A program made the position numbers and the translations under genes. A stretch of 32,496 bases of DNA from Chloroflexota bacterium (GTDB lineage Bacteria; Chloroflexota; Anaerolineae; B4-G1; SLSP01): contig JAAAOZ010000004.1 of assembly GCA_009908585.1 (NCBI GenBank), positions 1 through 32,496 on the forward strand, in the 5' to 3' direction. This document shows positions 4,157-26,655 of this stretch, piece after piece. Position 1 is the stretch's first letter; each line of letters starts with the position of its first letter. The notes below the pieces were generated by a model. It had not been told where the DNA came from. It made no database searches and saw nothing but the letters and a program-made list of their open reading frames with translations.

Positions 4157-4194
4157 GATTAGGGCAGGATAGAGAAAACGATGGAGGAAACGAG

Positions 4195-5085: not shown

Positions 5086-5093
5086 CAAACAAT

Positions 5094-5622: not shown

Positions 5623-5626
5623 AACC

Positions 5627-7347: not shown

Positions 7348-7389
7348 CGCCCCCAATAACGGCATTAGTGCCGTGCATAGTGAGGTTAT

Positions 7390-7695: not shown

Positions 7696-7704
7696 GGTGA
7701 GGAA

Positions 7705-8279: not shown

Positions 8280-9385
8280 CGACGCGAGAGCGACGCACGA
8301 AGGCCGGCCTTTTGATCGGCCTGATACTCATAATCAGCCTGGCCTGCGCAGACCAGAGTGCCATGACAACGCAGGCCATCGCGCCGGTCGTCACGTCATC
8401 AGCCCTCCAACCAACAATTGAGGCCATGGAGGTGCAGCGATACGCTGACGGCATTCGCGCCGAGAACAACGCCCGCGACGCCCAGGCGACCATCACGGCC
8501 CTGGGAGCACAGGCAACCGCCACAGCCTCGGCCATCGATGCACAATACACCGCCGTGGCCAGCGCCGCCACCCTCACAGCGGCAGCGCATCAGTCAACCG
8601 CCACCGCCGAGGCACAACGGCGCGTCGATCAGGAAGCGCGCCTCCATGCGACCGCCACAGCAGAAACCAAACAGATCGCAGCCACCGCCACGGCCCAGAT
8701 CGCCAACGCCAACGCCACCGCCACCAGCACCGCCGGCCGCGCGACCTCTACAGTCGAGGCCGCCAACTGGAGCCATAACGCCACCGCGACCGTTGCGGCT
8801 TGGAGCATCCAGGCCACCGCCACCGTAGAAGCCCACAACGCCTGGATCACCATCCAGGCCGCCGAGGCGCGCCGCGCCGAACTCGACCTGCACAGGGAGG
8901 AGACCATCGCCCCCTTGCGCACCTACGGGCCATGGATCGCCGGGTCGGCTTTCATGATCCTTATCATTGCCGTGATCGCCGGCGTCGTTACGTCATTTTT
9001 GAAAGTTTACGAAATTCAGAACTCGGCCATCCAACGGGACGAGCGCGGAGACGCCCCCCTGCTCCTGATTGATCCAAAACGCGGATGGCAGATCGCCGAT
9101 CCCGATCTTGCCCAGTGGCCCATCCTGACCGGCGCAGAGTCGCAACCCCGCGCCGACGAGGAAACCCAGGCCGCGATCAAGCGACGCGACCAGATGCTCG
9201 ACATCGGCACACGCGGAAGTACTGGCCGGCGCGCACGCGGGAGCGCACGCCAGACGGCCATCCAGGAGATGTCGCGCACCCCAGGATTCCAGGTTTTAAA
9301 GCGCGGCACAGCGCCCCCCCAAGCCCTGATCGATAGAAAGACAATGCTGGCCCTTGAGGACCAGTGGAAAGAGGAGAAAAGATGA
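8276..9385 (+). CDS. membrane-anchored Ala/Thr-rich protein (369 aa), possible signal or lipoprotein N-terminus
   Basis: GTG start in a GTGA overlap. N-terminus LLIGLILIISLAC. Long ATATA-type low-complexity region. Second TM segment WIAGSAFMILIIAVIAGVVTSF. Confidence 0.7.
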   Translation: MTTRERRTKAGLLIGLILIISLACADQSAMTTQAIAPVVTSSALQPTIEAMEVQRYADGIRAENNARDAQATITALGAQATATASAIDAQYTAVASAATLTAAAHQSTATAEAQRRVDQEARLHATATAETKQIAATATAQIANANATATSTAGRATSTVEAANWSHNATATVAAWSIQATATVEAHNAWITIQAAEARRAELDLHREETIAPLRTYGPWIAGSAFMILIIAVIAGVVTSFLKVYEIQNSAIQRDERGDAPLLLIDPKRGWQIADPDLAQWPILTGAESQPRADEETQAAIKRRDQMLDIGTRGSTGRRARGSARQTAIQEMSRTPGFQVLKRGTAPPQALIDRKTMLALEDQWKEEKR

Positions 9386-9582
9386 GCATCTATTTCTACA
9401 TTCTCATTCTTGATTATTTTTTCGGAGCCATCGCCGTCTTGCTATCGATGACCGTTTTTTCGAGAAATGACACGGATCGTAGCTCGGTATATATTGTAAC
9501 CGTCACTGTCATGTGGCCTATATTTGGGTTGCTGTGGGTGTTATTTACGTCATATTTTGCAATTAGTGAGGCTGAAAATTGA
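9382..9582 (+). CDS. small two-TM membrane protein (66 aa), visibly AT-richer than its neighbours
   Basis: ATGA overlap. YFYILILDYFFGAIAVLLSMTVF and VMWPIFGLLWVLFTSYFAI. Confidence 0.65.
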   Translation: MSIYFYILILDYFFGAIAVLLSMTVFSRNDTDRSSVYIVTVTVMWPIFGLLWVLFTSYFAISEAEN

Positions 9583-9640
9583 CAGGAGGAATGTCACTAT
9601 TGAAACGTGTCATTCGACACATCCATTCCTCATGATTGTT
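9574..9640 (+). repeat. structured direct repeat, copy A
   Basis: Starts at the last codons and stop of the upstream gene. Outer stem 9586-9593/9624-9631, inner hairpin GTGTC-ATTC-GACAC at 9607-9620. Homologous to 10982-11045. Confidence 0.75.
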
Positions 9641-9649
9641 TGGTATCAT
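9641..9649 (+). promoter_or_regulatory. extended -10 promoter TGgTATCAT
   Basis: Identical 9-mer to the one at 4131-4139, located 47 nt upstream of the RBS-backed start at 9696. Confidence 0.4.
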
Positions 9650-9695
9650 GAGGATAGTTAAGGATAAGAAACCGAACACCAAAATGGAGGAAGAC

Positions 9696-10991
9696 ATGAC
9701 GCAGCTAACGGCAAAAGTTCAGGCGATCACCACCACGCCAGAAGAGCGCGCGACGCAGCACATCGCCGCGCGCCTCTGGCGCTTTCTCCAGCAGCGTAAC
9801 CACGTGCCGGAAGTCCCGACGCGCCCGGCATTTTACGCTTGCCCACTACCGGATCGCGCCCTCATGGTCTTTGATCTGGAGGCCGGCCGCGATCTTGAGC
9901 GATTGCTAACCAGAAAGGAGCAGGCCAGCCTGGAACGCGTGCTCGGCGGCCGGCCCGTCTTGGCCTACGATCATGGCGGGCTATACCTGCAAATAGCCTA
10001 CCGCCCCGCGCCACCCCCCACGCCCCCACAATCCAAACCCCTGGACCTCACAAGGCAACCCTCCCCCCTGGCCCTACCTTGCGGTGAGACGAAAAACGGC
10101 CCGCTTTGGCTACCACTTGCCGACGCAGACAGTATCCTGGTGGCCGGCGCCCGCCAGATGGGCAAAACGACCCTCCTCCATGCCTGGATTCAAGCTCTCA
10201 TCGCGGGAGAAAAAGCCCACCTTACGCTTTGGGATGGCAAGGCCGGGTCGGAGTTCGCGCGCTACGAAAGCCAACGCGCCACTCACGCCACGCAGATCGA
10301 GGATGCCCTGGCGCGCATCACGGAGACGATGCACGCCAGGCAGGATGCATATAAGACGTCTGGAGCACGAAACTTCCGCGACCACGCCAAGATCACCGGC
10401 GACGAGACCACGCCGGAAGTGATCATCGTAGATGAGGCCATCGAACTGCCCGACACCGCGATGGAGGCATTCGAGCACCTCATCCGGCTTGGTGGCGGCT
10501 ATGCGATTCACCCCATCCTCGGTACGCAACACCCCAGCGCTGGCACCGTCACGTCGTTGGTCCGCGCCAACCTCAAAACGCGGATCGCCCTGCCCGTTGC
10601 GACCGCCAGAGAGAGCGTCGCAATTCTCGGGCATGGCGGAGCAGAGAAACTGCCCAAGCAGCCCGGCCATCTATTGATAGAATGGAGAGGGGAAATGATA
10701 CAGGCAGTAAGCAATCAAGTCGACGTGCCGGCCCCCACGCCCACCGCCGCGCCGCTCATTACGCAACCAGAGCGCCGCCTGGCCGAGATCGCCATCCGCG
10801 AACTTGGTGGATGGTTTCACATCGTCCCACTCTCTGAGGAATCAGGGGAAAGCAAGGATTTTGTGAACGATCTCGCCAAGAGATGGCAGGCCATGGGACT
10901 TCTAACCGAAGTCCAGCGCGACGAGCATGGCTATATTTGCGGTCGAGAGGTGAAACCACGCCTCAGAGAGATAGTAGAGGCGAAAAACTGA
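9696..10991 (+). CDS. FtsK/SpoIIIE-family DNA-translocase-like ATPase with C-terminal winged-helix-like domain
   Basis: Walker A GARQMGKTT and Walker B VIIVDEA. GTQHPSAGTVTSLVRANLKTRIALPVATARESVAILG matches the FtsK motor signature (TQRPS...N...RIA). Start at 9696 behind GGAGGAAG. No TM segment. Confidence 0.85.
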   Translation: MTQLTAKVQAITTTPEERATQHIAARLWRFLQQRNHVPEVPTRPAFYACPLPDRALMVFDLEAGRDLERLLTRKEQASLERVLGGRPVLAYDHGGLYLQIAYRPAPPPTPPQSKPLDLTRQPSPLALPCGETKNGPLWLPLADADSILVAGARQMGKTTLLHAWIQALIAGEKAHLTLWDGKAGSEFARYESQRATHATQIEDALARITETMHARQDAYKTSGARNFRDHAKITGDETTPEVIIVDEAIELPDTAMEAFEHLIRLGGGYAIHPILGTQHPSAGTVTSLVRANLKTRIALPVATARESVAILGHGGAEKLPKQPGHLLIEWRGEMIQAVSNQVDVPAPTPTAAPLITQPERRLAEIAIRELGGWFHIVPLSEESGESKDFVNDLAKRWQAMGLLTEVQRDEHGYICGREVKPRLREIVEAKN

Positions 10992-11045
10992 CAGGAAGAA
11001 TGTCACGCCGGAAACGTGTCACATGACACATCCATTCTCATTAAG
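10982..11045 (+). repeat. structured direct repeat, copy B
   Basis: Again begins at the last codons and stop of the upstream gene. Outer stem 10997-11002/11033-11038, inner hairpin GTGTC-ACAT-GACAC at 11016-11029. Confidence 0.75.
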
Positions 11046-11084
11046 ATACATTAAATGAAAATCAAGCATCAGAAAAGGAGCATC

Positions 11085-11228
11085 ATGAGCAAGATCAAGC
11101 AGGTATTGAAGAAAGTCGCAAGAGCTATCAACCCCACAGCACCGCGCCGTATCAATACATCGCGTATTCCGATTGATCACGCCGTCAAGAAAGTCGGTAA
11201 GATCGGCGCGCCGAAGGGGAGATCATGA
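11085..11228 (+). CDS. 47-aa basic micro-protein
   Basis: AAAAGGAGC RBS. ATGA overlap with the HAD gene. Below the ORF-track cutoff. Confidence 0.5.
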   Translation: MSKIKQVLKKVARAINPTAPRRINTSRIPIDHAVKKVGKIGAPKGRS

Positions 11229-11794
11229 ACCACAAAAATCGGAAGCTCTTCATATTTGACCTTGATGGCACCCTGATTGAGCGCGTCCAGGAACCCGACG
11301 GAGGAACGCGCCCGGCCAACACGCCGGACGAGGTGAAGCTTCTACCTGGCGTCAAGAAGAAAATAGCAGAACTGCGCGAACAGAGGCATATTGTCGCCAT
11401 CGCGACAAATCAAGGCGGCGTCGCTTGGGGATTCACGACAGAAGAGAATGTTTGGAGCGTGTTAAACGAGGTGGACAAGCAGTGCGGTCGTCAGTTTTGC
11501 TCCCGAAAAGCTTGTTTTTACGATCCCAGCGCAAGACATGGTTTACTAGACACGCGGCCAGAATACGCAAGTCACACCATCTTCCGCAAGCCATGGCCCG
11601 GAATGCTCTTTCAAATTATGATGGAGTTAGATTTTGACCAGGACGACGTGTTTTACATCGGCGACCAACCAAGCGACCTTGAGACCGCGAACCGCGCCGG
11701 CGTGAAGTTCCGCAACGCGGAATTCTTCTTTAAGCCAACACCCCCTGACGCCGGAATAGGCAGAAGAGGAGAACAGGCAGAACAGGAGGAATAG
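11225..11794 (+). CDS. HAD-IIIA phosphatase (GmhB / polynucleotide 3'-phosphatase-like)
   Basis: Motif I FDLDGTL, motif II IATNQGG, RKPWPGM, motif IV YIGDQPSDLETANRAGV. Confidence 0.85.
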   Translation: MNHKNRKLFIFDLDGTLIERVQEPDGGTRPANTPDEVKLLPGVKKKIAELREQRHIVAIATNQGGVAWGFTTEENVWSVLNEVDKQCGRQFCSRKACFYDPSARHGLLDTRPEYASHTIFRKPWPGMLFQIMMELDFDQDDVFYIGDQPSDLETANRAGVKFRNAEFFFKPTPPDAGIGRRGEQAEQEE

Positions 11795-11935: not shown

Positions 11936-13027
11936 ATGCCAAAAAACGCGCAACGCGACGGTCGAAACGCGCAAATCTACACCACACAACTCGACGGGAA
12001 CCAAGTCGCGCGCAAGGCCCTGGCCGGAGAGCCAATCCTGGTGTACCCCAAGGGCACCCACCATCGCGAGATGTGGGGAGGAAAAATCAAAACGTGGGAG
12101 GTCGACGACGACATCATCACCGACCTGGTGGAGAATTACACCCACCGCCTGGAGCGCGGCATCCGCCAGGGACTACTACCCGTGAACGAAGACCACAACG
12201 GGAGTCGCGCCCTGGGTTATTTTGACCAGGTCGCCGCCACGCCGGAAGGCTTGGCCGCCTCGTTTACGTGGAACCCCAAAGGCCGCGAAGCCCTGGAAAA
12301 CGGGGAGTTCGCATACTTTTCCCTGGAAATATACGATGAGATGGTAGATCGCGTTACCGGCGAAACGGTCAAAAACCAGATCTCCGGCGGCGCTTTGACG
12401 AATTACCCATTTTTTGGAGAGGCCGCCGCATTGATGAGCCGCTCCGCACAATCAAAGGAGGCACCTATGCCGACCGAAGTGCAGCACCAAGACGCACCGC
12501 AGGACGTCGCCTGGTACAGAGGCCTGGTCGACAAATTGACCGGCCAATTCACCACCGGCGCCCCCGCGCAGAACGGCTCGCCGATCCAAGACCGCAAAGG
12601 CGAGGATCTGCGCGCCGAATTTGACCGTCGCATCCAGGAGATCGAAACGCAGATGGAGAGTCGCATCGCGGACGTAGAAAGCGAGCGCGACGCTTACGCA
12701 CGTCAGATCGATGACCTGCGTGGCCAGCTTTCCCAGACCGAAGACGCGAGAGGTTCTCCCGCATGGCCGCCGGCTTTTCCCACGTCCCCGCCAAAACCTC
12801 CGACCTGGCTGAGCATCTCCGCTGGTTGCATGGGATCGACAGCGACGGCGAGCACGCGGCCTTCTTCACCCGCATGCTCTCGAAGACCGACGACGCCTTC
12901 AGAGAACAATTCAAGGCCAAGCAACTCCGCCACGATCACAGCCTGGACTCCGCAGAGAACCGCATCCACGCCCTCGCCGCTCAATACGAGGCCGAGCACC
13001 CCGACACAAATTACACACAGGCATTGA
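11936..13027 (+). CDS. Mu-I-like prohead protease / scaffold; reading frame appears broken near 12715-12765
   Basis: PVNEDHN, LGYFDQV...GLAASFTWNP, FAYFSLEI and GALTNYPFF match the Mu-like protease family pattern, followed by a coiled-coil. After about 12745 this frame gives a Pro/Ser/Thr-rich tail typical of out-of-frame reading. Confidence 0.75.
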   Translation: MPKNAQRDGRNAQIYTTQLDGNQVARKALAGEPILVYPKGTHHREMWGGKIKTWEVDDDIITDLVENYTHRLERGIRQGLLPVNEDHNGSRALGYFDQVAATPEGLAASFTWNPKGREALENGEFAYFSLEIYDEMVDRVTGETVKNQISGGALTNYPFFGEAAALMSRSAQSKEAPMPTEVQHQDAPQDVAWYRGLVDKLTGQFTTGAPAQNGSPIQDRKGEDLRAEFDRRIQEIETQMESRIADVESERDAYARQIDDLRGQLSQTEDARGSPAWPPAFPTSPPKPPTWLSISAGCMGSTATASTRPSSPACSRRPTTPSENNSRPSNSATITAWTPQRTASTPSPLNTRPSTPTQITHRH

Positions 13028-13101
13028 GTAAGGTCCTGGCCGATCATCCAGACCTGGCCCAGGCTTATCAGCAGGAGGTGCAAGATGAACGCCGTTCCTA
13101 A
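12763..13101 (+). CDS. scaffold C-terminal region in the -1 frame (separate start or frameshift continuation)
   Basis: This frame is open from 12715. It gives a protein-like helical sequence (FSHVPAKTSDLAEHLRWLH...AQAYQQEVQ). ATG at 12763 lies 9 nt after GAGAGG. Confidence 0.5.
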   Translation: MAAGFSHVPAKTSDLAEHLRWLHGIDSDGEHAAFFTRMLSKTDDAFREQFKAKQLRHDHSLDSAENRIHALAAQYEAEHPDTNYTQALSKVLADHPDLAQAYQQEVQDERRS

Positions 13102-13477
13102 CATGGCAATTTACGCAGAAACCCTCCCCGCCGGCGAAGACCTCTCGGAGGCGCAGTACCGCTTTGTGAAGCGCGACGACGACACTTACGTGGCCATCAC
13201 GGCCAACACCGACCAACCCGACGGCGTTCTCCAGAACGAACCGGACGTCGGTGAGCCATGTCATGTCATTGCGTTTGGCGGAAGCAAACTGGCCGCCAGC
13301 GAGGCCCTGGTCGTAGGCAACATGGTAGGTCCTTCGGCTAACGGACGCGCCGAGGTCCGGACCCAAGACCAGACCAACACCCTCTACATCGCGGCCCGCA
13401 TTCGCAGCGCGGTAAGCAACGCTAACGAGATCGCCGCCGCTCTGGTCAACTGCATCACGCCGACGATGGGCGTCTAA
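13085..13477 (+). CDS. DUF2190-like head protein (decoration/cement-type), 130 aa
   Basis: Size and position between protease/scaffold and major capsid. AGGAGG RBS 7 nt upstream. Confidence 0.7.
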   Translation: MNAVPNMAIYAETLPAGEDLSEAQYRFVKRDDDTYVAITANTDQPDGVLQNEPDVGEPCHVIAFGGSKLAASEALVVGNMVGPSANGRAEVRTQDQTNTLYIAARIRSAVSNANEIAAALVNCITPTMGV

Positions 13478-13518
13478 CCAATCAGTAGCTAAATCAGCAG
13501 CTAAAAAGGAGTAGAAAA

Positions 13519-14499
13519 ATGCCAAACATTCAGCCTGGCGTAGGAGACGTCCATGTTCGAAAATTACTGACGAACATCAGCGTCCAATATAAAAATGACA
13601 ACTACATCGCGGATCGCATCGCTCCCCCCGTTCCCGTTGACAAACAGGCCGACTTGATCCCGGTCTATACAAAGGAATACTGGGCCAGAAGCGTCGCTGA
13701 GGAACTGGCCTATATGCAAGCCCCGCCGGTCGGAGGTTATGAGGTTGAAACCGATTCCTACATGTGTCGCATGTACGGCATCGCCGATGCCATCCCGGAT
13801 GAGCAGAACGAAAACCAGGATCTCCCCTTTAACGCGGCACGCGACGCCAGCGAGTGGGTAACCGATCAACTGATGCTCAAGCGGGAGATCGACTTCCTGA
13901 CCAACTTCTGGACGACGGGAGTCTGGGGCACCGACGCGGTCGGAGACGGCGGCGGCGCAGATGACTTTGTGAAGTGGAGCGACTACACCACCTCCACCCC
14001 GCTCGCCGATCTCCGAGGATACGCGCGCACCATTCGCCACAACACCATGGGACGCAACCCCAACGTGCTGGTCTTGGGCGATCTCACCTTTGACGTGCTG
14101 GCCGATCACCCCGACGTTATGGAGACGATCAAATACAGCGCCTCGGCGGAAAGCCCCGCGCGCGTTACCCCCAACCTCCTGGCCCAGTTGTTAGGCCTCG
14201 ATGAGGTATTGATCGGCACCGTGGTCTACACCACCACGCCGGAAGGCGGAGATGCAACCTATACCAACGGCTACGGAGACGACGCCCTCCTGGTCTACCG
14301 TGAAAACGCCCCCTCATTGCGACGCCCCTCGGCCCTCTACACCTTCTTCTGGACGAGCGTCCTCGGTACAAACCAGTATATCCGGCAGCGCCGCGACCCC
14401 AACTCCGACCGAGGATGGTTGATCGAGGCTATGAGCTACTGGCACATCAAGGGCTTGTCCTCGGACGCCGGTGTTTTCATGTCCGACGCCGTAGACTAA
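13519..14499 (+). CDS. major capsid protein (HK97-fold type)
   Basis: 326 aa immediately after protease, scaffold and the DUF2190-like gene. The N-terminal IADRIAPPVPVDKQADLIPVY pattern is common in this capsid family. AAGGAG RBS. Confidence 0.8.
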   Translation: MPNIQPGVGDVHVRKLLTNISVQYKNDNYIADRIAPPVPVDKQADLIPVYTKEYWARSVAEELAYMQAPPVGGYEVETDSYMCRMYGIADAIPDEQNENQDLPFNAARDASEWVTDQLMLKREIDFLTNFWTTGVWGTDAVGDGGGADDFVKWSDYTTSTPLADLRGYARTIRHNTMGRNPNVLVLGDLTFDVLADHPDVMETIKYSASAESPARVTPNLLAQLLGLDEVLIGTVVYTTTPEGGDATYTNGYGDDALLVYRENAPSLRRPSALYTFFWTSVLGTNQYIRQRRDPNSDRGWLIEAMSYWHIKGLSSDAGVFMSDAVD

Positions 14500-17221: not shown

Positions 17222-18073
17222 ATGGTGAAACGAGCAGCACATGGTGGCATGCGCCACCTCGGAGTGTACCAACTTGGCGACGACGGCCTGCCGTTCGTAT
17301 CAGCGGCCGGCGCCGATCCCTATTCTGGCCTTTGGATGAACATGGCCCAGAGTTTCGTGCCCCAGTGGGTCGACGGGCAGATCATCCAATTCGAGGGGGA
17401 TGACCAGAGCCAAGGCCAGATCGACCTCGGCCCTAACGAAATGAGCAGCATCCAGATCGCCACCAGCGTCAACAACCTCACGGTCGACGCGCTCCTGGCC
17501 AACACCAGCGTGTTCCAGTTGGGCGGCAGCGACGCATTAGGCCGCGAGACCGACCGCGACAACTGCCTCCCCACCGTCATGCTACTGGCCTATTCTCAAG
17601 GTATTGACCGAGAACCCGACAGCCTCACTTTTGGTAACACGATCTATCGCTACTACCTGGTCATGCAAGCGATGGTCCGCGCCATGCCCGGCGGACATGA
17701 AAGCGGAAATCCGGCTACAACCGAGTACACCGCCTATCCTCGCAAGGTCGAGAAAATTCTCGGCTTTGACTTTGACGTGGCGACCCACGGCTTTGCCGAA
17801 GCCGCGTACATCGACGGGCACATGCCCGGGCCCCCCGTGCTCGACGCCTTCCTAATCGATGCTAGTCCAACTCTGACCCTGAACCTGAGCGAGACTCCTT
17901 ACAGCGAGACCGCCTATTTCCAGGCGTTCCTGGTGGCCGCCGCCGACGGATCTGGGACCGACATCACCTCCGACGCGACGGTCGACGCCGACGCCGGCAC
18001 CATCACCTTCACAACTCCGGTCGAGGATGACCAGGTCTTCGTGTTGTACGCAAAATCCGGCGGGTGCAGCTAA
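17222..18073 (+). CDS. major tail (tube) protein with C-terminal Ig-like extension
   Basis: 283 aa directly upstream of the G/GT chaperone pair. AAAGGAG RBS. Confidence 0.75.
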   Translation: MVKRAAHGGMRHLGVYQLGDDGLPFVSAAGADPYSGLWMNMAQSFVPQWVDGQIIQFEGDDQSQGQIDLGPNEMSSIQIATSVNNLTVDALLANTSVFQLGGSDALGRETDRDNCLPTVMLLAYSQGIDREPDSLTFGNTIYRYYLVMQAMVRAMPGGHESGNPATTEYTAYPRKVEKILGFDFDVATHGFAEAAYIDGHMPGPPVLDAFLIDASPTLTLNLSETPYSETAYFQAFLVAAADGSGTDITSDATVDADAGTITFTTPVEDDQVFVLYAKSGGCS

Positions 18074-18525
18074 TGCCGCGCCGTAAAGAACTGAGCTTCT
18101 CCGATGACCAGATCAATGTCGATCTGGTCATCGTTGAGGCTACCGCCATGACCGCCATGAAGCGCGCTGTATACGCTGGCCGCGCGGAAGCCTACGTCAA
18201 AGCACTGAACACCACCATAGAGGAGGACGGCCCCGCCGCAGCAGGAGGTCTGGTCGCCGTCCAGGCCAAGATCATGTTAGTCCGCATCTTCTACCCCGAC
18301 CTGTTGGCATCGGCGCAGGAAATCACCGGCCTCGACCCCGACATGAAGGTCGAGGAGTTTCTCGACCTCCCCCAGGCACTCACAGACGCCTGGCAAAACC
18401 TAACCTACGAACTCAACCCCCACTGGAATCCGTTCAGAGGTGAGGAAGACGAGACCGAGGACGAGCAAAAAAAAGACGAGAGCGAGAACGCCGAGAGCAG
18501 CAGCGAAGCATCCGCATCCAACTAA
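18073..18525 (+). CDS. tail assembly chaperone (gpG-like), acidic C-terminus
   Basis: TAATG overlap. Sits between the tube and tape measure genes. Contains the slip site. Confidence 0.75.
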   Translation: MPRRKELSFSDDQINVDLVIVEATAMTAMKRAVYAGRAEAYVKALNTTIEEDGPAAAGGLVAVQAKIMLVRIFYPDLLASAQEITGLDPDMKVEEFLDLPQALTDAWQNLTYELNPHWNPFRGEEDETEDEQKKDESENAESSSEASASN

Positions 18526-18761
18526 TCGAGTACAACCGCGCGCTCAACGAGTCAAGCGCCGGCGACTTTGAGGACGATGGGCAATGGGAGCTATATAAGC
18601 CAGAGCTTTCCATGCGCCTTTGGAAGCTATGGCGTTCTTTCGGTGACAAGGAGCCGCTTTTCCCCGGCGGCCTTGTCAACTGGCCGGACTGGGTGATCCA
18701 CGACTTCCGAATTTTGGAATGGCAGCATCGCATCATCAAACAAGAGTTTGAAACCGATTGA
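18073..18761 (+). CDS. tail assembly chaperone, -1 frameshift-extended form (gpGT-like)
   Basis: A_AAA_AAA at 18468-18474 is aligned to the zero frame (CAA AAA AAA). The -1 frame is open from 18444 to the TGA at 18759-18761. Confidence 0.55.
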
Positions 18762-18772
18762 GGAGGCGCCCC

Positions 18773-19312
18773 ATGCGCATCACCGCCGGCCTGGTTCAAG
18801 ATGACGAGTATAACGATTTTTGGCACAACTTGGCCGGGATAGGCGACCTCGGCGCGCGCGAAACGGAGATCATTGCCGATACGGCACGCCGAGGCATTCA
18901 CGAAAACTTCAAGCGCGAGCAGTCTCCTGACGGAACACCATGGACACCCCTGGCCCCCTACACCCAACAGCAACGCCGCGCCGGCATCGATGAGCGCGGC
19001 ATCCCTTTTTCAACCGGCGCAGAACACCCCATCCTGCGCCGCACCGATGACCTCCTCCTTTCGTTTGTGAACCCCCGTCACCCGCGCAACATCACCATTG
19101 CAGATCATGACGGATGGAATACCCGTATCACACTCGGAGCCGTTGACGACCCGCAGACCCCCAACCGCATCGCAACCCTACACGCCGGCGGAACCACGGC
19201 CACAGGACGCATCGTTCCCCCGCGTCCATTTGTTGGGCTTGGAACCAAGGCCATCCGGCAACTCGAAGCCCAGGCCCTGGCAATCCTAACGCAGCGCGTG
19301 AAAAACCTCTAA
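18773..19312 (+). CDS. Mu gpG-like virion morphogenesis / tail completion protein (179 aa)
   Basis: FKREQSPDGTPWTPLAP...ILRRTDDLLLS...HAGG...IVPPRPFVG matches the phage virion morphogenesis family pattern. GAGGAGG RBS. Confidence 0.7.
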   Translation: MRITAGLVQDDEYNDFWHNLAGIGDLGARETEIIADTARRGIHENFKREQSPDGTPWTPLAPYTQQQRRAGIDERGIPFSTGAEHPILRRTDDLLLSFVNPRHPRNITIADHDGWNTRITLGAVDDPQTPNRIATLHAGGTTATGRIVPPRPFVGLGTKAIRQLEAQALAILTQRVKNL

Positions 19313-19313
19313 C

Positions 19314-19327
19314 ATTTCCCAGGAAAT
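19314..19327. promoter_or_regulatory. palindromic site ATTTCC-CA-GGAAAT (copy 3 of 4), overlapping the tape-measure RBS
   Basis: It lies within a 19-nt exact repeat (19310-19328, also found at 26243-26261) that starts at a TAA stop codon. Confidence 0.45.
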
Positions 19328-19330
19328 ACC

Positions 19331-22300
19331 ATGACAACAGATTTTAAAATCAAGATCACCATAGACGGCCAAGACGCGGCCCAACAGGCCGGCGACGTCC
19401 GCAAGGCCATCGAAAAGGAACTCGGCGCGATCACGTTCCAGACCAAGATGGACAAGAGCACCGCCAACGCCCTGAAGCGCATGTTCTCCTATGCCGGCAA
19501 GGAGGCCAAGAATCTGGAACGCGCCGCCGCCGCCTTGCAGCAGATCGGGGAGGTTGACCCCGACAGCCTGGAAGGCCTACACCGCGCCATGCTCTCCATC
19601 AAGCAGGACGCCAAGGGCATCGGCAAAGCGATGGCCGACGGCATGCAGGAGAACTGGGGGAGATTAGAAACGACCCTCACGGCCATTCAGAGCCAGATCT
19701 CCGGGATCGTGGCGCGCGGCCCGGCGAGTGCTTTTGGCGAGATGACCGGGGAGATACAAGGACTTGACGACGCCCTGGACGCCGGCACCACTAAGGCCGT
19801 CTCCGCAATGCAGAAAATCAAAGAACTCGAAGGCCGCATCCAAGGCGCGACCGAGGAAATAGGCCGCTTGGGATCACAGCGCTTTCAACCCCTCTCCGGC
19901 GCGACGACGACCACCATGGATGCGCTATTTGAGGGATTCGCTTCCAGCGGCTACAAGTCATATATTTCCAGGATTAAAAACAAGATCACCCGCGAGCTTG
20001 AGGAGATGCAGGTCGAGGTCGCCGGGAAAATGGCCAATGTTCAAGACCATATCGCGCGCCGGGTGGAGATCGGAACCCGCATGCGCGATATGGTCATCGG
20101 CGGCGGACTGTCAGAGGATGAAGTCGAGGAAGTACAATCTCACTACGACCGCCTTGGCGTCGCTATCACCGTAAGCGCCGAAGGCCTCGCGCAAAACATG
20201 GAAGAAGTCCGACAGGCCATTAGAGAGCACATGGCCATTGAGCCGCCAGAAGGATCGCCAGAGCTTGCGCAGTGGAAAGAGCAGATGGAAACCCTTTCAG
20301 CGATCAAGATTGACATTGACCGCGAGATCGGGGAAGCGCGATCCTCCGTCTATGATCAAGAGACCGTGGCCCTGATGAGCAAGATGGACGCGCGAGAACG
20401 CGAGCTTAGAGAAGAGCATGCCGGCAATATTGAGCTTTGGGAAGAATTCGGCATGGAGTCGATAGAGGAGGTCAAGCAGGCCCTGGAACGCGAAGGGCAG
20501 CAGGCCGCCGCCAACACCATCGCGTCCATGGTCAAACTCCAAGAGCGCGTCAACCGCCTCCAGCAGAAACAAAAAGCTCAAGTCTCGAAGCTTCAAAAAG
20601 GCGCGACGGCGCAGCTTCCAAAGGGAGCGCAAGGCACCCTGGTCGACTTCATCAACGCTCAGAAAGCGATGGGCGATGCAGTCACTGGTACAATAGAAAT
20701 CATCAACGAGCAAGCAGACGCATTCGACAATCTAGTCGAGGCCATGGACGCGGCAGCGAAGGCCTCCGAAGGGATGAATTACATCGAGCGCCGCGCATCT
20801 CAGGAGCTTGAAGCAGCAGCACGGCGCGAGCTAACCAAACGCACCAGAGCCAGCGTGCCCCTTGACCAAGCGGCAGAAAACAGCCGCGACGTTCTAACCC
20901 GCCTGGCCGGTCATGTTGCATCACTACGAACCGCCATCGAAACACCCATGGACGAGATGGCCCAGGCAACCGACGAGGCCGCCGACGGCGTAGAAAGCGA
21001 CGTCTCGCAGCTCCGCCAGAAACTAACCGAACTCCAAACCCAGGCCATGAAGGAGATCGAAAGCTTACCAAGACGCGGCGTCGGGATAGAGAAAGCCACC
21101 GAGCAATCGCGCGCCGTTCTTCTCCGTCTGGCCCAAGAGATCGAGGCCCTCCAACAAACCGCCGCCAAACCCGCCGAGGACGCAGCAGAAGCGACCCAGG
21201 ACACAGCCAAACAAGTGGCCAGCAGCGTCGACAAGATCGAGCGCGAACTGGCCAGCGATCCCACAGAACCCGCCAAAGAACAAGCGAAAGGCCTTGTCAA
21301 AGTTTGGCAATGGGTATCAGACAAGCTTGTCGGCCATTCGATAGTGCCTGAGATGGTCGCCGGGATAAACGCAGAGCTTCGCAAGATCGACACGCGCCCC
21401 ATCGCTGACGTGAAGAGCGCAGCAACGCCCGGCCCCACAGCCTCCGACCTACAAGGCGTGGCCCTCTACAACGAGACCGGCCAGAACCGCGCAGTCGGAA
21501 AAGCGATGCAACGCCAGCACTCCACAGCATGGTGGGCAGCCTACACAAATGCCTTCACAGCTTCACAAGAAGGAATGGCCGCCGTCGCGCAAAAGACCGA
21601 GCAGGACATCGCCGCCGCCACCGACCACCAGCAAGCGATTCGCAACACACAAACCGCCGCGCGCGCGATCTTGGACGAGTGGCGACAGGTATACGAGGAG
21701 CTTGTCGGTCACTCGATCATCCCCGACATGGTGAGGGAAATAAACGCATGGCTTGCAAAAGTTGACCCTGAATATTTCGGGTCAGAAGCCTTAGTCGGGA
21801 TGGCAGAGTCTACAGCGCAGGAAGTGAGCGAGGTCCTCACCGCAGCCACGGAAGGCCTACCCATCGAAAACATCACGGCGCGCCTGGCCGACCTGGAAGC
21901 GGAGCGCAAGTCGCTAAACAGGGAGATGGCCGAGATGACCCTGCGCGGCGGCCTTCAACCGTCAAAGCAGGCCGGCCCCCGCTACCGCGCCATGATGGAC
22001 GAGATGTACAGCGACATGGACAAGATGCGCGGCGAGATCGGCGGGGAAGGGTGGGGATCGGACGAGGAAGCCGCCATGCGAGCCATGGGTTACATGCCGA
22101 AAGGCTGGTCCCCGCACCAAGGCGAGCGAATGACCGAAGGATCGGAAGACGAATTCGTCCGCGCCCTCAACACTGACGCGGAATTTAAAACCAGATTCAC
22201 CGCCGAGGAAGAGGCCCGCCTTGAAGGCGTCATGGAGAAGTTGGCCGCCGTTGAAGTCCAGTATGCAACGCTGGCCCAGTCACTTATCAAACGCCGCGAT

Positions 22301-25300
22301 GCTCTCCTGGCCCAATTCGAGGCCATCACCGAAGACGAAGGCGCATCTCCGGAAGAATTCGAGCGCGTTTACACTCAATTGCAGGAAACCGAGCAGGCCC
22401 TGGAACAGCTTGACCAACAGATGCGCGAAGGAGACGTGGCGGCCAAAATACAGGAGGCCCAAGACCTCTCCGATGTGTCCACGGAACTCGAACAGGATCG
22501 CGAGCAGGCGCGCACCCTTGAGGAGCAACGCGCTTTCAACCGTTCGCCGGAAGCAACACGCCAGAAAGAGATCGAACGCCGCAAAACAGAGGCTAAAAAG
22601 TCTAGCATCCGTCTTCAAGAACAAGAAGAGAAGCTCATTCGTAAGGCGCAGCAGCTTACCGCCGAACTTGGGGAGAACTGGGAAAGCATCCAGGCTAACA
22701 TGGAGTCTTCCGGTCAAAGTGCCGCCGAACTCGTCGGAAGCCTTACCCGCCAGAAGCAAGAGCAAAAACAACTAAGGAAGGCCCAACAACTGGCCGCCGA
22801 ACTTGGCGAGGACTGGGAGAGCATCCAATCTAACATGGAAGCTTCCGGCCAAAGCGCCGCCGAGATCGTCGGAAGCCTTACCCGCCAGAAAAAGGAAGCG
22901 AGGGAACTGGCCCAAGCGGAAGCCCGCGCCCAGAAAGAGGCCCGCCAGCGCGAGGTACTGAGCGAGCGAGCGCAGCAAATGACCACCAAGATCGGCGTTT
23001 CCTGGCGCGCCGTAGAGGACGCCGCCGACGCTACCGGATTGAGCATCGAAGAGATCGTCCGCGAACTTGAAACTGTGGCCAATAACCAGCAGCGGATCAA
23101 CCGCCACGCGGATCGATTGCGAGAGAACTACACGGGCATTGGCGGAACGATTAAGCTGTTCCGCGACGAGATCAACGCCGCCGCCAAAGAAAGCGAAGGG
23201 CTAACACAACTTGGACGCAATCTTGAGCAGGTGGCGAATAACCTGGGACGCACGTCCATGGTGATCGGCGGAAGTTTAATCAAGGCGGGGAAAGATTACC
23301 GCGACTTCATCTCGCAGACCGACATGGCCGCGCGCGCCGTGGGACTTAACCAGCAAATGACCCAAGGCCTCCGCGCCGACGTAATGGCCATGTCTACAGA
23401 AACCGGCATCGACCCCCGCGAAATCTCGCGCGGCCTCACAGCTTGGGCACAAGATGCCAACGTCACCATCGAAACCCAGGAGGAGCTAAACGCCCTCTTG
23501 GAAAACACAATCCCCATCCAGGAAGCCGTGGCCCTTACCGGCGTCGACATGGCAACCATGTCGCAGGCCGCCGCCGCCGCTATAAATCAGTACGGCAAAG
23601 AGATGGAGGATGTGGAAGAAATAACGGCCATTTTTAACAAGGTGGCCAACGAGACCTTAGCCAGCGTCTCGGACGTAGCCGGATCGTTCAAGATGGCAAG
23701 CGCTACAGCAGAACGCGCCGGCGAGAGCCTGGAAGACACCGCCGCCGTCTTTACCCTCCTCGGCGAGAACGGCATCAAGGCAACCCAGGCCGGCACTGGT
23801 TACCAGCAGATGCTTGACAATCTCCTGGTGCCAACCTCAGAAAAGGCCAAGGAAGTCCTGGTCGACCTTTTTGGAGATGAAGAGGCTTTCTTTGATCAAG
23901 AAGGGAACTTCGTCGGCACCGCCAAAGCCATCGAGATGATAGCAGAAGCAACGCGAGGCCTGACCGATCAGCAACGCGAAGCGGCCATGGGAGCACTTTT
24001 TACTCAAAACGCTTCGCGAGTTGCGGCGATCCTTGTCCGCGAGCAGATGGAGGCCGGCGCGCAAGGCATAAACACGCTGAAAGAAAAGGCATCAGAGCTA
24101 TCCGCCGATTCACTCCAGGAATGGGAACAACAACGCGAAGACCTCGAAAGCAGCGAAACGCAACGCATCGCCCGTTTGGAACAGGAATGGCGCCGCCTTT
24201 GGCTTACCATAGGACAACAGGGGATGGAGCTTGTCCTCCCCACGGTTGAAGCGACGTCTCAAGCCTTAGAAAAAGTAAGCGCGTTCGCCGGACAATACCC
24301 ACAGGTAGTAAAAGCCTTCGCGGTTTTGGCCGGCGGAGGATTTGCAATCAGTCGCCTGCTGGCCGCAACGGGAACCGCACTTCAAACTATCAACATGGCC
24401 AGCAACCTGGCCAAGGGGACATGGGGCGTCTTAGAATTCAAGTCCGCCGTAGTTACCTCGGCTGAAACTTTTCGCGAGATCGTAACCGAGGCCGCCGCAA
24501 CAGCAGCGACAACGGAGACGGAGGGAGCCAAGGCGGAAGGCGTCATCGAGGCCGAAAGCGCAGTCGATGAGAAAGTCATCGAGGCCAGCAGCGCAGAAGC
24601 TGAAGGAGTCATTGAGGCAAAAAGCGCGGTCGATGAGGAAGTCATTGAGGCCAAAGGCGCAGAAATCGAAGGAGCATTAGAGGCCAAAAGCGCAATCGAT
24701 GAGGAGGTCATTGAGGTTACAGGAGCAAAAACAGAGACCGCCATCGAGACCGCATCCGCCGGCGGCCTGGCCGCCGCGCTTGGAACTGCCGCCGCCGGCA
24801 TATCAGCGCTGGCAACGGCAGTCCTTGTCCCCCTTGCTGGTATCTTTGGCGGCGCGAAAATATACGATGAATTTATAGCCGACAAAATAGGGGGAGCTTC
24901 TCTAGAGCAATTCGGAGCCGTCACCGCCTATGCAGTAGGCGAGGCCCTAGAAAAAATCGGGCTTGGAGAGGATCTGGGAGAACGATGGTTTAGCCGTCGC
25001 GCCGGCCTTGAGCAGGAGCAACCCAACCCCGCATCCTACCTCCCCGGTCCAAACCTAAGAACGACCGGCCCGTCCGGTGATGACATGCTGCGGGAGTTTG
25101 GCATCATGCTCCCTGGAACAGGGATCGACGGGATCAAAGACCTCGACGGCGCGATCAAGGATCTGGGCGACACGGCAACCGATGCGAGCTATGAAATCTA
25201 CGATGCCCAACGTCAACAAGAAGACGCCTACGATCTCTCCGAAGAACAGGAGAAAGCAGTCGATCTGTACGTAGAGCTTCTTCAGAAGCAAAAAACGGCC

Positions 25301-26245
25301 CTCGACGACCTAAACGCCAGCATCGCGGAAGCTAACGCCGATCTCCAGACCGACTTAGCAAAAATGGAAGACGACTACAACCAAAACCGCCGCGACGCCG
25401 CCGAGGACTTCCGGCAATCCGAGGCCGAGCAGGAGCGCCAGCACCAAGAGAAACGAGCACGCGCCCTCGAAGAGCATAACAAGCGCATGCGGCGCATGCG
25501 AGAGGATCACGAAGCGCGCGTCTTTGACCTCGAATTGGCCCGCGACGCCGCCGGTCTGTTCAAAGAAAAGCGAAACTACGAAAAGGAGAAGTCGCGCGCC
25601 GAGGAGGACTTCGCGGATCAGCAGCAACAACAGGCCGAGCAATACCAGCGGGAGCGCGCCAAGCGCGCCCAACAACACCAGCAGCGCATGGTCGACATCG
25701 AAACCGAGTATCAGCGCCGGCGCACCGAGCGCATCCAACAAAACACGGAGCGCGTCGCAGAGATGAGGCAGCAACACCAGGAAGAAATGGCCCGCTTGGA
25801 ACGTGAGTATTTCGACAAGATCAATGCAGAATTAAACTATTTCACGCAATCAAAGGCCCAACGCGAGGCCTACTATCAAGCAATGATACAGGATACTGAG
25901 AGATTCCTGGCCGCCAACCGCAACATTTGGGCCCGACACATCGCCAACTTGCCCACGCCATCCGGCGTCTCGATACCAGCAGGTGGCCTCCGCGCCCGCG
26001 CGGCCGGTGGCTACATCCGCAACACCGAACCGCACATGATGCACGCCGGGGAATTCGTCATGTCACCAGGCACCACGCGGCAAGTTGAAGCGGCGATGGG
26101 TACCCGACTAAACCAACAGAACGTCCGGCGTGGCGGCGGCGTAAACATCTCCGCCACCTTCACCGGGATGGGCACCGCAGATCGCACCTGGTACGAGGCA
26201 AAACTTCAGGAATTCGAGCGCGAGATCACCGACGCGATTCTGTAA
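19331..26245 (+). CDS. tape measure protein (2304 aa)
   Basis: Size, coiled-coil composition, a TP901-type core region (SDVAGSFKMASATAERAGESLEDTAAVFTLLGENGIKATQAGTGYQQML), hydrophobic segments near 24.3-24.9 kb, and position after G/GT. Confidence 0.95.
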   Translation: MTTDFKIKITIDGQDAAQQAGDVRKAIEKELGAITFQTKMDKSTANALKRMFSYAGKEAKNLERAAAALQQIGEVDPDSLEGLHRAMLSIKQDAKGIGKAMADGMQENWGRLETTLTAIQSQISGIVARGPASAFGEMTGEIQGLDDALDAGTTKAVSAMQKIKELEGRIQGATEEIGRLGSQRFQPLSGATTTTMDALFEGFASSGYKSYISRIKNKITRELEEMQVEVAGKMANVQDHIARRVEIGTRMRDMVIGGGLSEDEVEEVQSHYDRLGVAITVSAEGLAQNMEEVRQAIREHMAIEPPEGSPELAQWKEQMETLSAIKIDIDREIGEARSSVYDQETVALMSKMDARERELREEHAGNIELWEEFGMESIEEVKQALEREGQQAAANTIASMVKLQERVNRLQQKQKAQVSKLQKGATAQLPKGAQGTLVDFINAQKAMGDAVTGTIEIINEQADAFDNLVEAMDAAAKASEGMNYIERRASQELEAAARRELTKRTRASVPLDQAAENSRDVLTRLAGHVASLRTAIETPMDEMAQATDEAADGVESDVSQLRQKLTELQTQAMKEIESLPRRGVGIEKATEQSRAVLLRLAQEIEALQQTAAKPAEDAAEATQDTAKQVASSVDKIERELASDPTEPAKEQAKGLVKVWQWVSDKLVGHSIVPEMVAGINAELRKIDTRPIADVKSAATPGPTASDLQGVALYNETGQNRAVGKAMQRQHSTAWWAAYTNAFTASQEGMAAVAQKTEQDIAAATDHQQAIRNTQTAARAILDEWRQVYEELVGHSIIPDMVREINAWLAKVDPEYFGSEALVGMAESTAQEVSEVLTAATEGLPIENITARLADLEAERKSLNREMAEMTLRGGLQPSKQAGPRYRAMMDEMYSDMDKMRGEIGGEGWGSDEEAAMRAMGYMPKGWSPHQGERMTEGSEDEFVRALNTDAEFKTRFTAEEEARLEGVMEKLAAVEVQYATLAQSLIKRRDALLAQFEAITEDEGASPEEFERVYTQLQETEQALEQLDQQMREGDVAAKIQEAQDLSDVSTELEQDREQARTLEEQRAFNRSPEATRQKEIERRKTEAKKSSIRLQEQEEKLIRKAQQLTAELGENWESIQANMESSGQSAAELVGSLTRQKQEQKQLRKAQQLAAELGEDWESIQSNMEASGQSAAEIVGSLTRQKKEARELAQAEARAQKEARQREVLSERAQQMTTKIGVSWRAVEDAADATGLSIEEIVRELETVANNQQRINRHADRLRENYTGIGGTIKLFRDEINAAAKESEGLTQLGRNLEQVANNLGRTSMVIGGSLIKAGKDYRDFISQTDMAARAVGLNQQMTQGLRADVMAMSTETGIDPREISRGLTAWAQDANVTIETQEELNALLENTIPIQEAVALTGVDMATMSQAAAAAINQYGKEMEDVEEITAIFNKVANETLASVSDVAGSFKMASATAERAGESLEDTAAVFTLLGENGIKATQAGTGYQQMLDNLLVPTSEKAKEVLVDLFGDEEAFFDQEGNFVGTAKAIEMIAEATRGLTDQQREAAMGALFTQNASRVAAILVREQMEAGAQGINTLKEKASELSADSLQEWEQQREDLESSETQRIARLEQEWRRLWLTIGQQGMELVLPTVEATSQALEKVSAFAGQYPQVVKAFAVLAGGGFAISRLLAATGTALQTINMASNLAKGTWGVLEFKSAVVTSAETFREIVTEAAATAATTETEGAKAEGVIEAESAVDEKVIEASSAEAEGVIEAKSAVDEEVIEAKGAEIEGALEAKSAIDEEVIEVTGAKTETAIETASAGGLAAALGTAAAGISALATAVLVPLAGIFGGAKIYDEFIADKIGGASLEQFGAVTAYAVGEALEKIGLGEDLGERWFSRRAGLEQEQPNPASYLPGPNLRTTGPSGDDMLREFGIMLPGTGIDGIKDLDGAIKDLGDTATDASYEIYDAQRQQEDAYDLSEEQEKAVDLYVELLQKQKTALDDLNASIAEANADLQTDLAKMEDDYNQNRRDAAEDFRQSEAEQERQHQEKRARALEEHNKRMRRMREDHEARVFDLELARDAAGLFKEKRNYEKEKSRAEEDFADQQQQQAEQYQRERAKRAQQHQQRMVDIETEYQRRRTERIQQNTERVAEMRQQHQEEMARLEREYFDKINAELNYFTQSKAQREAYYQAMIQDTERFLAANRNIWARHIANLPTPSGVSIPAGGLRARAAGGYIRNTEPHMMHAGEFVMSPGTTRQVEAAMGTRLNQQNVRRGGGVNISATFTGMGTADRTWYEAKLQEFEREITDAIL
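22640..22909 (+). repeat. 135-bp (45-aa) tandem duplication inside the tape measure gene
   Basis: RKAQQLTAELGENWESIQANMESSGQSAAELVGSLTRQK aligns with RKAQQLAAELGEDWESIQSNMEASGQSAAEIVGSLTRQK. Confidence 0.85.
24533..24730 (+). repeat. three 66-bp (22-aa) tandem repeats inside the tape measure gene
   Basis: AEGVIEAESAVDEKVIEASS / AEGVIEAKSAVDEEVIEAKG / IEGALEAKSAIDEEVIEVTG. Confidence 0.8.
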
Positions 26246-26246
26246 C

Positions 26247-26260
26247 ATTTCCCAGGAAAT
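26247..26260. promoter_or_regulatory. palindromic site ATTTCC-CA-GGAAAT (copy 4 of 4)
   Basis: Within the 19-nt exact repeat 26243-26261, immediately after the tape-measure stop codon. Confidence 0.45.
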
Positions 26261-26274
26261 AACCAAGGAGCAAT

Positions 26275-26655
26275 ATGGGCAATTACCGGATCAGCAATAC
26301 CCACCCCTTTGACGATGACGATCTCTGCACAGCGCGCTTTGAGTTTGACCCGCGCAGCAGCTACACGCCGGGTGCAGAGCGCGTAACGACGTTGGCCGGC
26401 ACAACTGAGGATGTGGGATACCAACGCAGCATCTGGACATTCTCGGCGCTTTCGATAGCGCAATGGTCAGCGCTCAAAAGCCTCGTCGGAGGGGAAAGCG
26501 GAGAGGTCTACATCGAAACAAGAAACGATGTGGACACATGGGCAGAATACCGCGCCCTGGCCAGACTGCCAAACCCCGGAGACCTAACGCGCGCCGGCGG
26601 CTATTATGAATCCGTGACCGTAACGCTCCTGCTTTTGGAGGATGTTACCCCATGA
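26275..26655 (+). CDS. minor tail protein (126 aa; distal-tail or gpM-like by position)
   Basis: First gene after the tape measure. AAGGAG RBS. Confidence 0.7.
   Translation: MGNYRISNTHPFDDDDLCTARFEFDPRSSYTPGAERVTTLAGTTEDVGYQRSIWTFSALSIAQWSALKSLVGGESGEVYIETRNDVDTWAEYRALARLPNPGDLTRAGGYYESVTVTLLLLEDVTP

Follow-up and report, generated by a model that had tools for sequence, protein, structure and literature searches.

The stretch of DNA considered here is contig JAAAOZ010000004.1 from the assembly of a Chloroflexota bacterium, of which the entire record of 32,496 nucleotides (nt) was analyzed; it is referred to as the window. It carries phage genes, all of them on the + strand. The element under study is a 19-mer, TAACATTTCCCAGGAAATA, which brackets the gene of the tape measure protein and whose palindromic portion recurs at two positions further upstream. 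The 19-mer is composed of a palindrome of 16 base pairs (bp), probably a DNA-binding site of the ParB/Noc type, and a TAA stop codon that abuts it. The four sites and the genes adjoining the tape-measure copies are as follows.

4133-4156: fourth site, a 24-bp palindrome, GTATCATTTCC-GG-GGAAATGATAC, with its core at 4138-4151

7767-7782: third site, TATTTCCCAGGAAATA, within a doubtful open reading frame (ORF) of 57 amino acids (aa; 7705-7878), 3' of the actin-like gene and its 101-aa neighbor

18773-19312, + strand: tail completion or virion morphogenesis gene (Mu gpG/P2 S-like; phrog_26, PF05069)

19310-19328, + strand: NBS-like ParB-type site, consisting of the TAA stop codon of the tail-completion gene and the 16-bp site CATTTCCCAGGAAATA at 19313-19328, with its core at 19314-19327

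19331-26245, + strand: tape measure gene, 2304 aa (tape-measure PHROGs, PF10145), flanked by two of the sites

26243-26261, + strand: second identical copy, consisting of the tape-measure TAA stop codon and the 16-bp site at 26246-26261

26275 onward, + strand: distal tail genes

A preliminary description of this DNA had claimed that the tape measure gene is enclosed by an exact 19-nt repeat that could not be due to chance, and a pattern scan of the window recovered both copies, while 100 dinucleotide-preserving shuffles yielded no match, even with up to three mismatches. The TAA of either copy is indeed a stop codon, that of the tail-completion gene in one case and that of the tape measure gene in the other. 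The related copies described at the same time were likewise found; the one at 7768-7784 has 17 nt, ATTTCCCAGGAAATACC, in common with 19314-19330, and the palindrome at 4133-4156 is built from the same half-sites within 11-nt arms. The core ATTTCCNNGGAAAT, in which two central nucleotides separate ATTTCC from GGAAAT, occurs exactly four times in the window, at 4138, 7768, 19314, and 26247. If up to two mismatches are allowed there are five matches (1.27 expected); the fifth, at 12317, has one mismatch and was counted as chance, because it lies within conserved protease coding sequence that is also kept in the related locus L011 (related loci and contigs are denoted by L numbers). The site at 19313-19328 stops 2 nt short of the tape-measure ATG (19331), and AGGAAA at 19321-19326 is, as had been noted, the sole Shine-Dalgarno-like sequence preceding that ATG. 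After the copy at 26243-26261 come AAGGAG and then the start of the next gene, an ATG at 26275. For the gene preceding the tape measure gene, the start is most likely the ATG at 18773, after GAGGAGG, rather than the TTG at 18758, which is a correction. A single long non-coding gap exists in the window (4099-4194), and it contains the fourth site, 3 nt 3' of the TTGACA hexamer at 4124-4129 and ahead of the operon to which the actin-like gene belongs.

The consensus of the Noc-binding site (NBS) is TATTTCCC-GGGAAATA and that of parS, the site of ParB, is TGTTTCAC-GTGAAACA; the specificity residues 173, 179, 184, and 201 (Caulobacter ParB numbering) are R, T, A, and G in ParB and Q, K, K, and R in Noc, and noc has been reported only from Firmicutes (PMC7383237). 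Of the 16 positions of the NBS consensus, 15 are matched by the window site at 7767-7782 and 14 by each of the tape-measure sites (19313-19328 and 26246-26261); the core at 4137-4152 has the same half-sites as the other copies. The window sites fit the 16-bp frame of the family, TnTTTCnC-GnGAAAnA, in its NBS variant and, as judged from their sequence, (C/T)ATTTCC-CA-GGAAATA, they correspond to the NBS consensus with one central base changed. The CG center of the Bacillus NBS would create CCGG/CCCGGG restriction sites.

The 16-mer TATTTCCCAGGAAATA is present in 96 stretches of IMG/VR. Multi-copy matches come from contigs with a guanine-plus-cytosine (GC) content of 53-65%, with 10 copies in a contig of 53.9 kb, 7 in one of 56.8 kb, and 6 and 5 in others; single-copy matches come from low-GC contigs and are chance or unrelated. 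The variant of the window, ACATTTCCCAGGAAATA, occurs in two copies in another contig of 30.7 kb, the captured genes of which are without similarity to the window, and no protein is common to the window and the first motif-bearing loci retrieved from IMG/VR. The 16-mer with flanks, ATATTTCCCAGGAAATAG, is found once per contig in L038, L041, L057, L063, L065, and about 10 more loci (GC 0.45-0.47); many of the lower-GC IMG/VR contigs with these flanks originate from sample 3300045988, and the copies probably belong to a gene segment that is conserved within an unrelated family of phages. A scan of genome contigs with an 18-mer returned, among the matches listed, chance or unrelated matches in low-GC Firmicutes and Bacteroidetes and thus no host information.

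The high-GC loci contain 75 unique sites. In a separate count, made with a crude gene caller and with deduplication less strict than for the 75, 56 of 83 sites are in non-coding DNA, the share of which is 16.5% of bases; among those assigned to coding sequence, several in fact sit just 5' of the true start codon. The sites are found 2-18 nt before a separate strong Shine-Dalgarno sequence, before or after terminator hairpins, in divergent gaps, and also upstream and downstream of clear TTGACA-N17-TACAAT promoters. The central dinucleotide is CA/TG in 67 of the 75, CG in four, and CC/GG in four, an excess that is in part due to ascertainment bias of the search pattern; CA/TG is also the center of most sites from loci fetched by protein. 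Both CA and TG are found facing downstream genes. A family of proteins of 59-82 aa with the motif GHWGEV(T/I/V)FR is encoded downstream of promoters adjoining sites in at least five contigs of both phage groups that bear the motif (e.g., L023:1842-2036, L078:1117-1176, and L033:8865-9113); we take it to be possibly YezD/DUF2292-like.

Relatives (L008-L018 and L258) were found via homologues of the tail-completion protein, with identities of 51-76%. Down to approximately 57% protein identity, relatives keep the motif 5' of the tape measure gene. The closest of them, L258 (76% at the amino acid level), has the identical 19-mer before the tape measure gene, though the TAA is not a stop codon there; in L011 and L008, TATTTCCCAGGAAATAAT is located at the junction of the tail-completion and tape measure genes, with the center flipped to TG in L008. 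In these three loci the motif stands directly upstream of the tape measure gene despite diverged flanks, while the junction site is degenerate in L010 and L018 and lost in L015-L017. No site is present at the 3' junction of the tape measure gene in L008, L011, and L015-L018. Conservation together with the flanking genes, by which the preliminary description was to be judged, is therefore seen for the upstream site, which recurs, but neither for the downstream site nor, hence, for the bracketing. The bracketing is peculiar to the lineage of this window, since no relative examined has a site after the tape measure gene, and the copy at 26243 is possibly a recent duplicate of the site at 19310. 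The junction of the TerL and portal genes also carries the motif in L008, L011, and L018. In five relatives the motif is located inside a tail-protein gene, in a hypervariable linker where nothing but ISQE, encoded by the motif, is conserved, and from the alignment this points to selection acting on the DNA itself.

Other features of these junctions were observed. A small reverse-strand gene (45-68 aa) is situated between the tail-completion and tape measure genes (L008:10543-10743, L013:10546-10743, L015:9990-10127, and L018:10549-10755), and its product, read by eye from the sequence, appears rich in hydrophobic residues; in L008, an NBS-like site lies in a 46-nt divergent gap, 3 nt from the GGAGG of this gene. 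Tandem repeats, TAACTCC/TAACTCG four times and AAAATCT three times, occur just upstream of the TerL-portal site (L008:760-805 and L011:790-828), and GGCAAAT/TTACAAA repeats are present at the end of the L013 contig (L013:10750-10809).

With regard to the mode of action, the preliminary description had suggested that a bound factor gates translation of the tape measure gene, or that the sites are internal late promoters or processing points. The general idea that a factor binds the palindromes is supported, while the specific readings are not. An element acting at the RNA level would be a hairpin with the tape-measure Shine-Dalgarno sequence as its right arm, bound or folded to control translation, or a processing site of the late polycistronic mRNA. 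It would account for AGGAAA being the sole Shine-Dalgarno-like sequence before the tape-measure ATG, which applies likewise to L258 and L010, and for the location of most sites on the coding strand just upstream of starts. In the local fold, however, the hairpin of either tape-measure copy accounts for only -2.2 kcal/mol and does not surpass shuffled sequences (z = +0.25 and +1.03), and there is no Rfam match. In the relatives the motif is 3-20 nt or more away from start codons, in most of them 5' of a separate strong Shine-Dalgarno sequence; it occurs in both orientations, next to terminators and promoters, inside the coding linker, and before opposite-strand genes, and it is strictly conserved in sequence instead of showing compensatory changes. 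Control at the RNA level is thus very improbable, and an intrinsic terminator or other structured RNA element was rejected on the same energy, z scores, and Rfam result. As for internal promoters, no sigma-70-like promoter, with -35 and -10 hexamers 16-18 nt apart, was scored on the + strand at 4138 or 7768 in a scan of 3900-8100, which covers two of the four sites, the tape-measure junctions being outside that region; at 19314, the 2 nt between the site and the tape-measure ATG leave no room for one. With regard to processing, a search of sequencing runs returned no RNA run that contains this sequence. Because of the site contexts, the occurrence of both orientations, and an RNA fold no better than shuffles, the motif is a symmetric DNA site and not an RNA element or promoter.

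A candidate reader of the site is provided by the motif-bearing phages themselves, which encode a ParB-family protein of 450-750 aa. Two kinds of genes recur directly 3' of the sites, one coding for a protein of 490-530 aa whose N-domain and helix-turn-helix (HTH) are those of a canonical ParB, the other being an actin-like gene. A site is located 20-60 nt upstream of the ParB-family gene in L235, L237, L238 (gene at 10001-11488), L240, and L270, and directly upstream of the actin-like gene at L071:1426 (the same as L240:3860) and L247:8282. The phage protein passes the ParB/RepB/Spo0J model TIGR00180; its best NCBIfam match is nucleoid_noc, TIGR04285 (79-101 bits, with a cut-off of 315), and its best matches in the Protein Data Bank (PDB) are the Noc structures 7NG0 and 7NFU. 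When aligned to Noc with HMMER, the phage protein shows Q opposite Q158/173 and R opposite R186/201. Both Q173 and R201 are present in 31 of the 33 long family members scored, several of which are exactly QKKR, and the nucleotide-binding boxes of the N-domain, GHRRxRAF, ENxxR, and NPxQxR, are invariant. According to the N-termini listed, the phage proteins start directly with the ParB N-domain; C-terminally they possess zinc ribbons. That the protein is Noc proper was ruled out by the score of 79-101 versus 315 bits, by the length of 450-750 aa versus approximately 280 aa, and by its separate clade in the tree. In a rough neighbor-joining tree, the Q173 proteins form one clade that is nested among the R173 phage ParBs, apart from cellular ParB and Noc, which suggests that the Noc-like specificity of the phage clade would have been acquired independently of cellular Noc.

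The relation between reader and site was followed in loci fetched with the ParB-like protein, which are therefore unbiased for the motif. Eight Q173 loci from the IMG/VR scan contain 20 exact 14-mers in 158 kb, and fifteen more distant ParB-like loci contain none in 237 kb. Q173 proteins with sites were also found in the metagenome loci L260-L262, L264, and L265 and in contig L270; no site is present in L263, a fragment of 2.6 kb that encodes a near-identical Q173 protein. The distant ParB-like loci have repeated palindromes of their own, listed here with residues 173 and 201 of the respective protein.

L244: R173, R201; TGTTGGCGCGCCAACA

L245: R173, R201; TGTTCGCGCGCGAACA

L247: R173, R201; TGTTTCCCGGGAAACA

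L266: G173, G201; TGTTTC-N4-GAAACA

L267: R173, position 201 not assignable; TGTTCC-N4-GGAACA

For R173 together with R201, the published code predicts a hybrid of parS and NBS, and this is the palindrome that L247 has. At position 2 of the site, A goes with Q173 and G with R173; position 7 is C in every R201 locus scored and T in the sole G201 locus, L266. The site sequence thus covaries with the specificity residues of the ParB proteins.

On this background the possibility was weighed that the palindromes are operators of a different dimeric regulator from phage or host, namely, a repressor acting at the main promoter through the site at 4138 and blocking or tuning transcription through the others, as stoperator-like roadblocks at late-operon junctions. 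The site at 4138 does lie between the TTGACA hexamer and the first gene of the operon, and the relatives have some sites 5' of -35 boxes, others 3' of -10 boxes, and others within divergent gaps. The stoperators of L5-like (cluster A) mycobacteriophages are comparable in that a short motif is dispersed over gene junctions genome-wide, with one promoter copy. They are, however, asymmetric 13-bp sites, dependent on orientation and bound by an immunity repressor of the L5 gp71 type, while the phage sites are palindromic, of the ParB type, and independent of orientation, with both orientations of the center upstream of genes. Furthermore, no other DNA-binding protein is common to both structurally unrelated motif-bearing phage groups, and the sequence matches the NBS consensus and covaries with the ParB HTH residues. 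The stoperator/repressor model was accordingly ranked below ParB once the NBS match and the covariation were taken into account, and it is rather improbable. A type II (ParMRC) centromere, parC, was also considered for the actin-like gene, with sites upstream of actin-like genes in L240 and L247, and was rejected; the sites are single palindromes and not, like parC, arrays of direct repeats, and they match the ParB type instead.

For assigning the ParB-type sites to a reader in this particular phage, the remaining genes of the window are relevant.

481-1419, + strand: divergent ParB-fold protein, 312 aa (GxxR box, HTH-like segment, C-terminal zinc ribbon; ParB-like PHROGs)

1508-3513, + strand: O-like and DnaC-like replication genes

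4603-5085, + strand: HNH endonuclease

5627-6352, + strand: DUF6610

6310-7347, + strand: actin-like ATPase (ParM/Alp7A/PRTRC protein D-like; PF17989, PF21522)

9636-10991, + strand: FtsK/HerA-like ATPase

11225-11794, + strand: HAD/PNK-phosphatase-like gene

11936-13027, + strand: Mu-like protease

13085-14499, + strand: scaffold and capsid

The only ParB-like gene of the window is that at 481-1419. Its product has no match in Pfam, NCBIfam, or PDB, and is unlikely to be the binder, because a 48% homologue with a nearly identical recognition helix is encoded in L245, a locus that has no NBS-like site. IMG/VR searches with this protein and with that of 18758-19312 returned no relatives, and an exact look-up of the protein of 26275-26655 found no record. 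Synteny was also tried via the second, canonical 312-aa ParB of L270 (10730-11668) and dropped, that protein not being homologous to the 312-aa protein of the window. Two structural relatives, in turn, carry tail-region sites and the large ParB gene on one contig each. These are Ga0209605_1000490, covered by L009 and L260 with the ParB gene at L260:10001-11590, and SRR26786784_16412, covered by L013 and L270; in both, a site is found approximately 35-45 nt upstream of the ParB gene.

The absence of a canonical ParB gene from the 32.5-kb contig and the lack of synteny between the early region of the window and the ParB-bearing relatives could be taken to mean that the phage has no cognate ParB and that its sites are relics or are bound by a ParB/Noc-type protein of the host. 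Four perfect 14-bp cores, including a newly gained site after the tape measure gene, argue instead for ongoing selection, and every relative with enough sequence has a ParB gene of its own. The contig is clearly an incomplete genome, since neither a terminase nor a portal gene was found in it and a terminal overlap is lacking as well. A host Noc would also have to be reconciled with the report of noc in Firmicutes only (PMC7383237), yet two related contigs were binned with Anaerolineae, which is a weak indication of host identity. Relic sites or a host reader are therefore unlikely, and the cognate ParB gene of this phage would lie off the contig. A microbial-mat sequencing run contains 78% of the words of the window. 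Logan contigs of a source-like run, fragmented and of approximately fivefold depth, gave no extension of the contig, and near-identical phage genomes were not found in INPHARED.

Further observations were made on the gene content. L270:1975-7509 is a phage-contig cassette headed by the ParB-like gene, with genes for Prok_Ub, a 314-aa protein, Prok-E2_D, Prok-JAB, and ThiF after it, as in PRTRC/prokaryotic ubiquitin-like systems; a PRTRC ThiF passes its cut-off in another motif-bearing contig, and the actin-like protein at 6310-7347 matches TIGR03739 (PRTRC_D) with 2.4e-27, albeit below the cut-off. In the window, the DUF6610 gene overlaps the actin-like ATPase gene, which is followed by the gene of a 101-aa protein without known family, a possible adaptor (5627-7695); family searches recognized no ParR family for the 7390-7695 product, and the arrangement suggests plasmid-like maintenance. 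At the left end, a 15-nt direct repeat, GCTTTTTTGTTACCA, occurs twice (206-222 and 448-465), each time some 10-15 nt 5' of the Shine-Dalgarno sequence of consecutive small genes. Genes of unassigned function, the FtsK/HerA-like ATPase, and the HAD/PNK-like gene occupy 7876-11794, where the relatives hold TerL and a Mu-like portal before the protease. As seen from the frames, the ORF at 18064-18525 is followed by a -1-frame ORF up to 18761, resembling the tail-chaperone G/GT arrangement; the position of a gpG/S-like tail-completion gene between these ORFs and the tape measure gene (18064-19312) is an unusual order. Family matches of the tape measure protein are confined to residues ~1065-2285 of 2304, with none for the N-terminal ~1000 aa. 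Rfam and tRNA scans of the window gave no match.

Among the known systems, ParB-parS partition complexes, including that of P1 ParB, share with the phage system the frame TnTTTCnC-GnGAAAnA and the presence of several dispersed sites, as are also the centromere sites of N15 SopB. The likeness would extend to nucleation and to spreading by a CTPase clamp, if the phage protein behaves by analogy, and the phage element, which carries an actin-like ATPase, may be an episomal prophage. Unlike in parS, positions 2 and 7 of the phage site are of the NBS type, and neither a ParA gene (in the neighborhood of L270) nor an N-terminal ParA-binding extension (in the phage ParB N-termini) was seen. Noc and NBS of Bacillus subtilis nucleoid occlusion (PMC7383237; 10.1101/2021.02.11.430593) resemble the phage system in 14-15 of 16 palindrome positions, in a ParB-family protein that shares the HTH frame as well as Q173 and R201, the residues by which bases are read, and in many sites per replicon, some of them in coding DNA. 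They differ from it in that the phage protein is encoded on phage contigs, has a length of 450-750 aa with zinc-ribbon C-terminal regions, and would read a central CA step rather than CG; two related contigs were binned with Anaerolineae, noc being reported in Firmicutes only, and an N-terminal extension for the membrane-targeting helix was not seen in the phage N-termini as listed. KorB-OB of RK2, BisD-bisS of ICEclc, and VirB-virS are systems of mobile elements in which a ParB-like CTPase clamp controls transcription (PMC11790492, PMC12409273, PMC10770331). As in the phages, multiple palindromes are spread over the element in varied positions relative to promoters; sites upstream of the phage's own ParB gene and of actin-like genes and the 4138 copy in a promoter region are reminiscent of regulation of the KorB type, and a sliding clamp like that of KorB and BisD would explain action at a distance. 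In contrast to these systems, the site sequence is different and no equivalent of KorA or BisC was identified in the phages; regulation by the phage protein is put forward here as an analogy.

Taken together, the four sites of the window are probably loading sites of a phage-encoded ParB/Noc-like clamp and not a translation switch of the tape measure gene. In the related phages, the ParB-family protein of 450-750 aa would recognize the sites, with Q173 and R201 reading the two NBS-specific base pairs as they do in Noc. By analogy to ParB, Noc, KorB, and BisD, for which clamp nucleation and spreading have been shown (10.1101/2021.02.11.430593; PMC11790492; PMC12409273), a dimer would nucleate at each site, close as a clamp dependent on cytidine triphosphate (CTP), and spread on the neighboring DNA, and sites placed every few kilobases would load the protein across the whole phage genome. 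The clamp may serve to segregate an episomal prophage, to control transcription over a long range in the manner of KorB and BisD, or to do both. Gene junctions would carry the sites because they are the places where a 16-bp palindrome can be accommodated in a compact genome, and the 6.9-kb tape measure gene would be bracketed because it holds no internal junction, the bracketing as such being incidental.

Several points weigh against this interpretation. No member of the Q173/R201 ParB family is found in the window by tblastn and family hidden Markov model at maximum sensitivity in six frames. The dominant CA/TG center is unlike the CG of the Bacillus NBS, a difference that may affect the predicted binding, and positions 179 and 184 of the phage proteins are often not Lys/Arg, unlike in Noc. 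Part of the covariation is phylogenetic, given that the Q173 proteins fall into one clade. Finally, many sites are located immediately before a Shine-Dalgarno sequence or between a terminator and the next gene, and such placement is a hint of a role linked to transcription, for which plain loading sites would not account.

In kind, a ParB-type site on a mobile element is ordinary; what is unusual is the Noc-type specificity on phages, apparently acquired independently. A wider proposal, put forward tentatively and with somewhat less than even confidence, is that of a phage ParB-CTPase lineage in which Noc-type specificity (Q173/R201, in some members the full QKKR) evolved independently of the Firmicute Noc and for which the NBS-like junction sites serve as a genome-wide loading code, coupled to the actin-like ATPase and to the PRTRC/prokaryotic ubiquitin-like cassette, and controlling inheritance and/or expression of the phage genome.

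If true, an NBS-type system would for the first time be known from a virus and from beyond the Firmicutes, and the switch from parS to NBS, a textbook case of the evolution of DNA specificity that is so far known from a single event in the Firmicutes, would have a natural replicate. The four-residue code could be put to an independent natural test in such a phage family, which has Noc-like readers of its own, NBS-like sites by the dozen, and, as intermediates, R173/R201 proteins whose sites are hybrid. For annotation it would follow that a short palindrome at the junction of late genes is not necessarily a promoter, a terminator, or an operator of translation. Research on the ParB-fold CTPase clamps of mobile elements, such as KorB, BisD, and VirB, is moving fast, and the sites described here would provide a tractable handle on the function of ParB-like proteins in phages as well as the first candidate cis-element for PRTRC-type cassettes.

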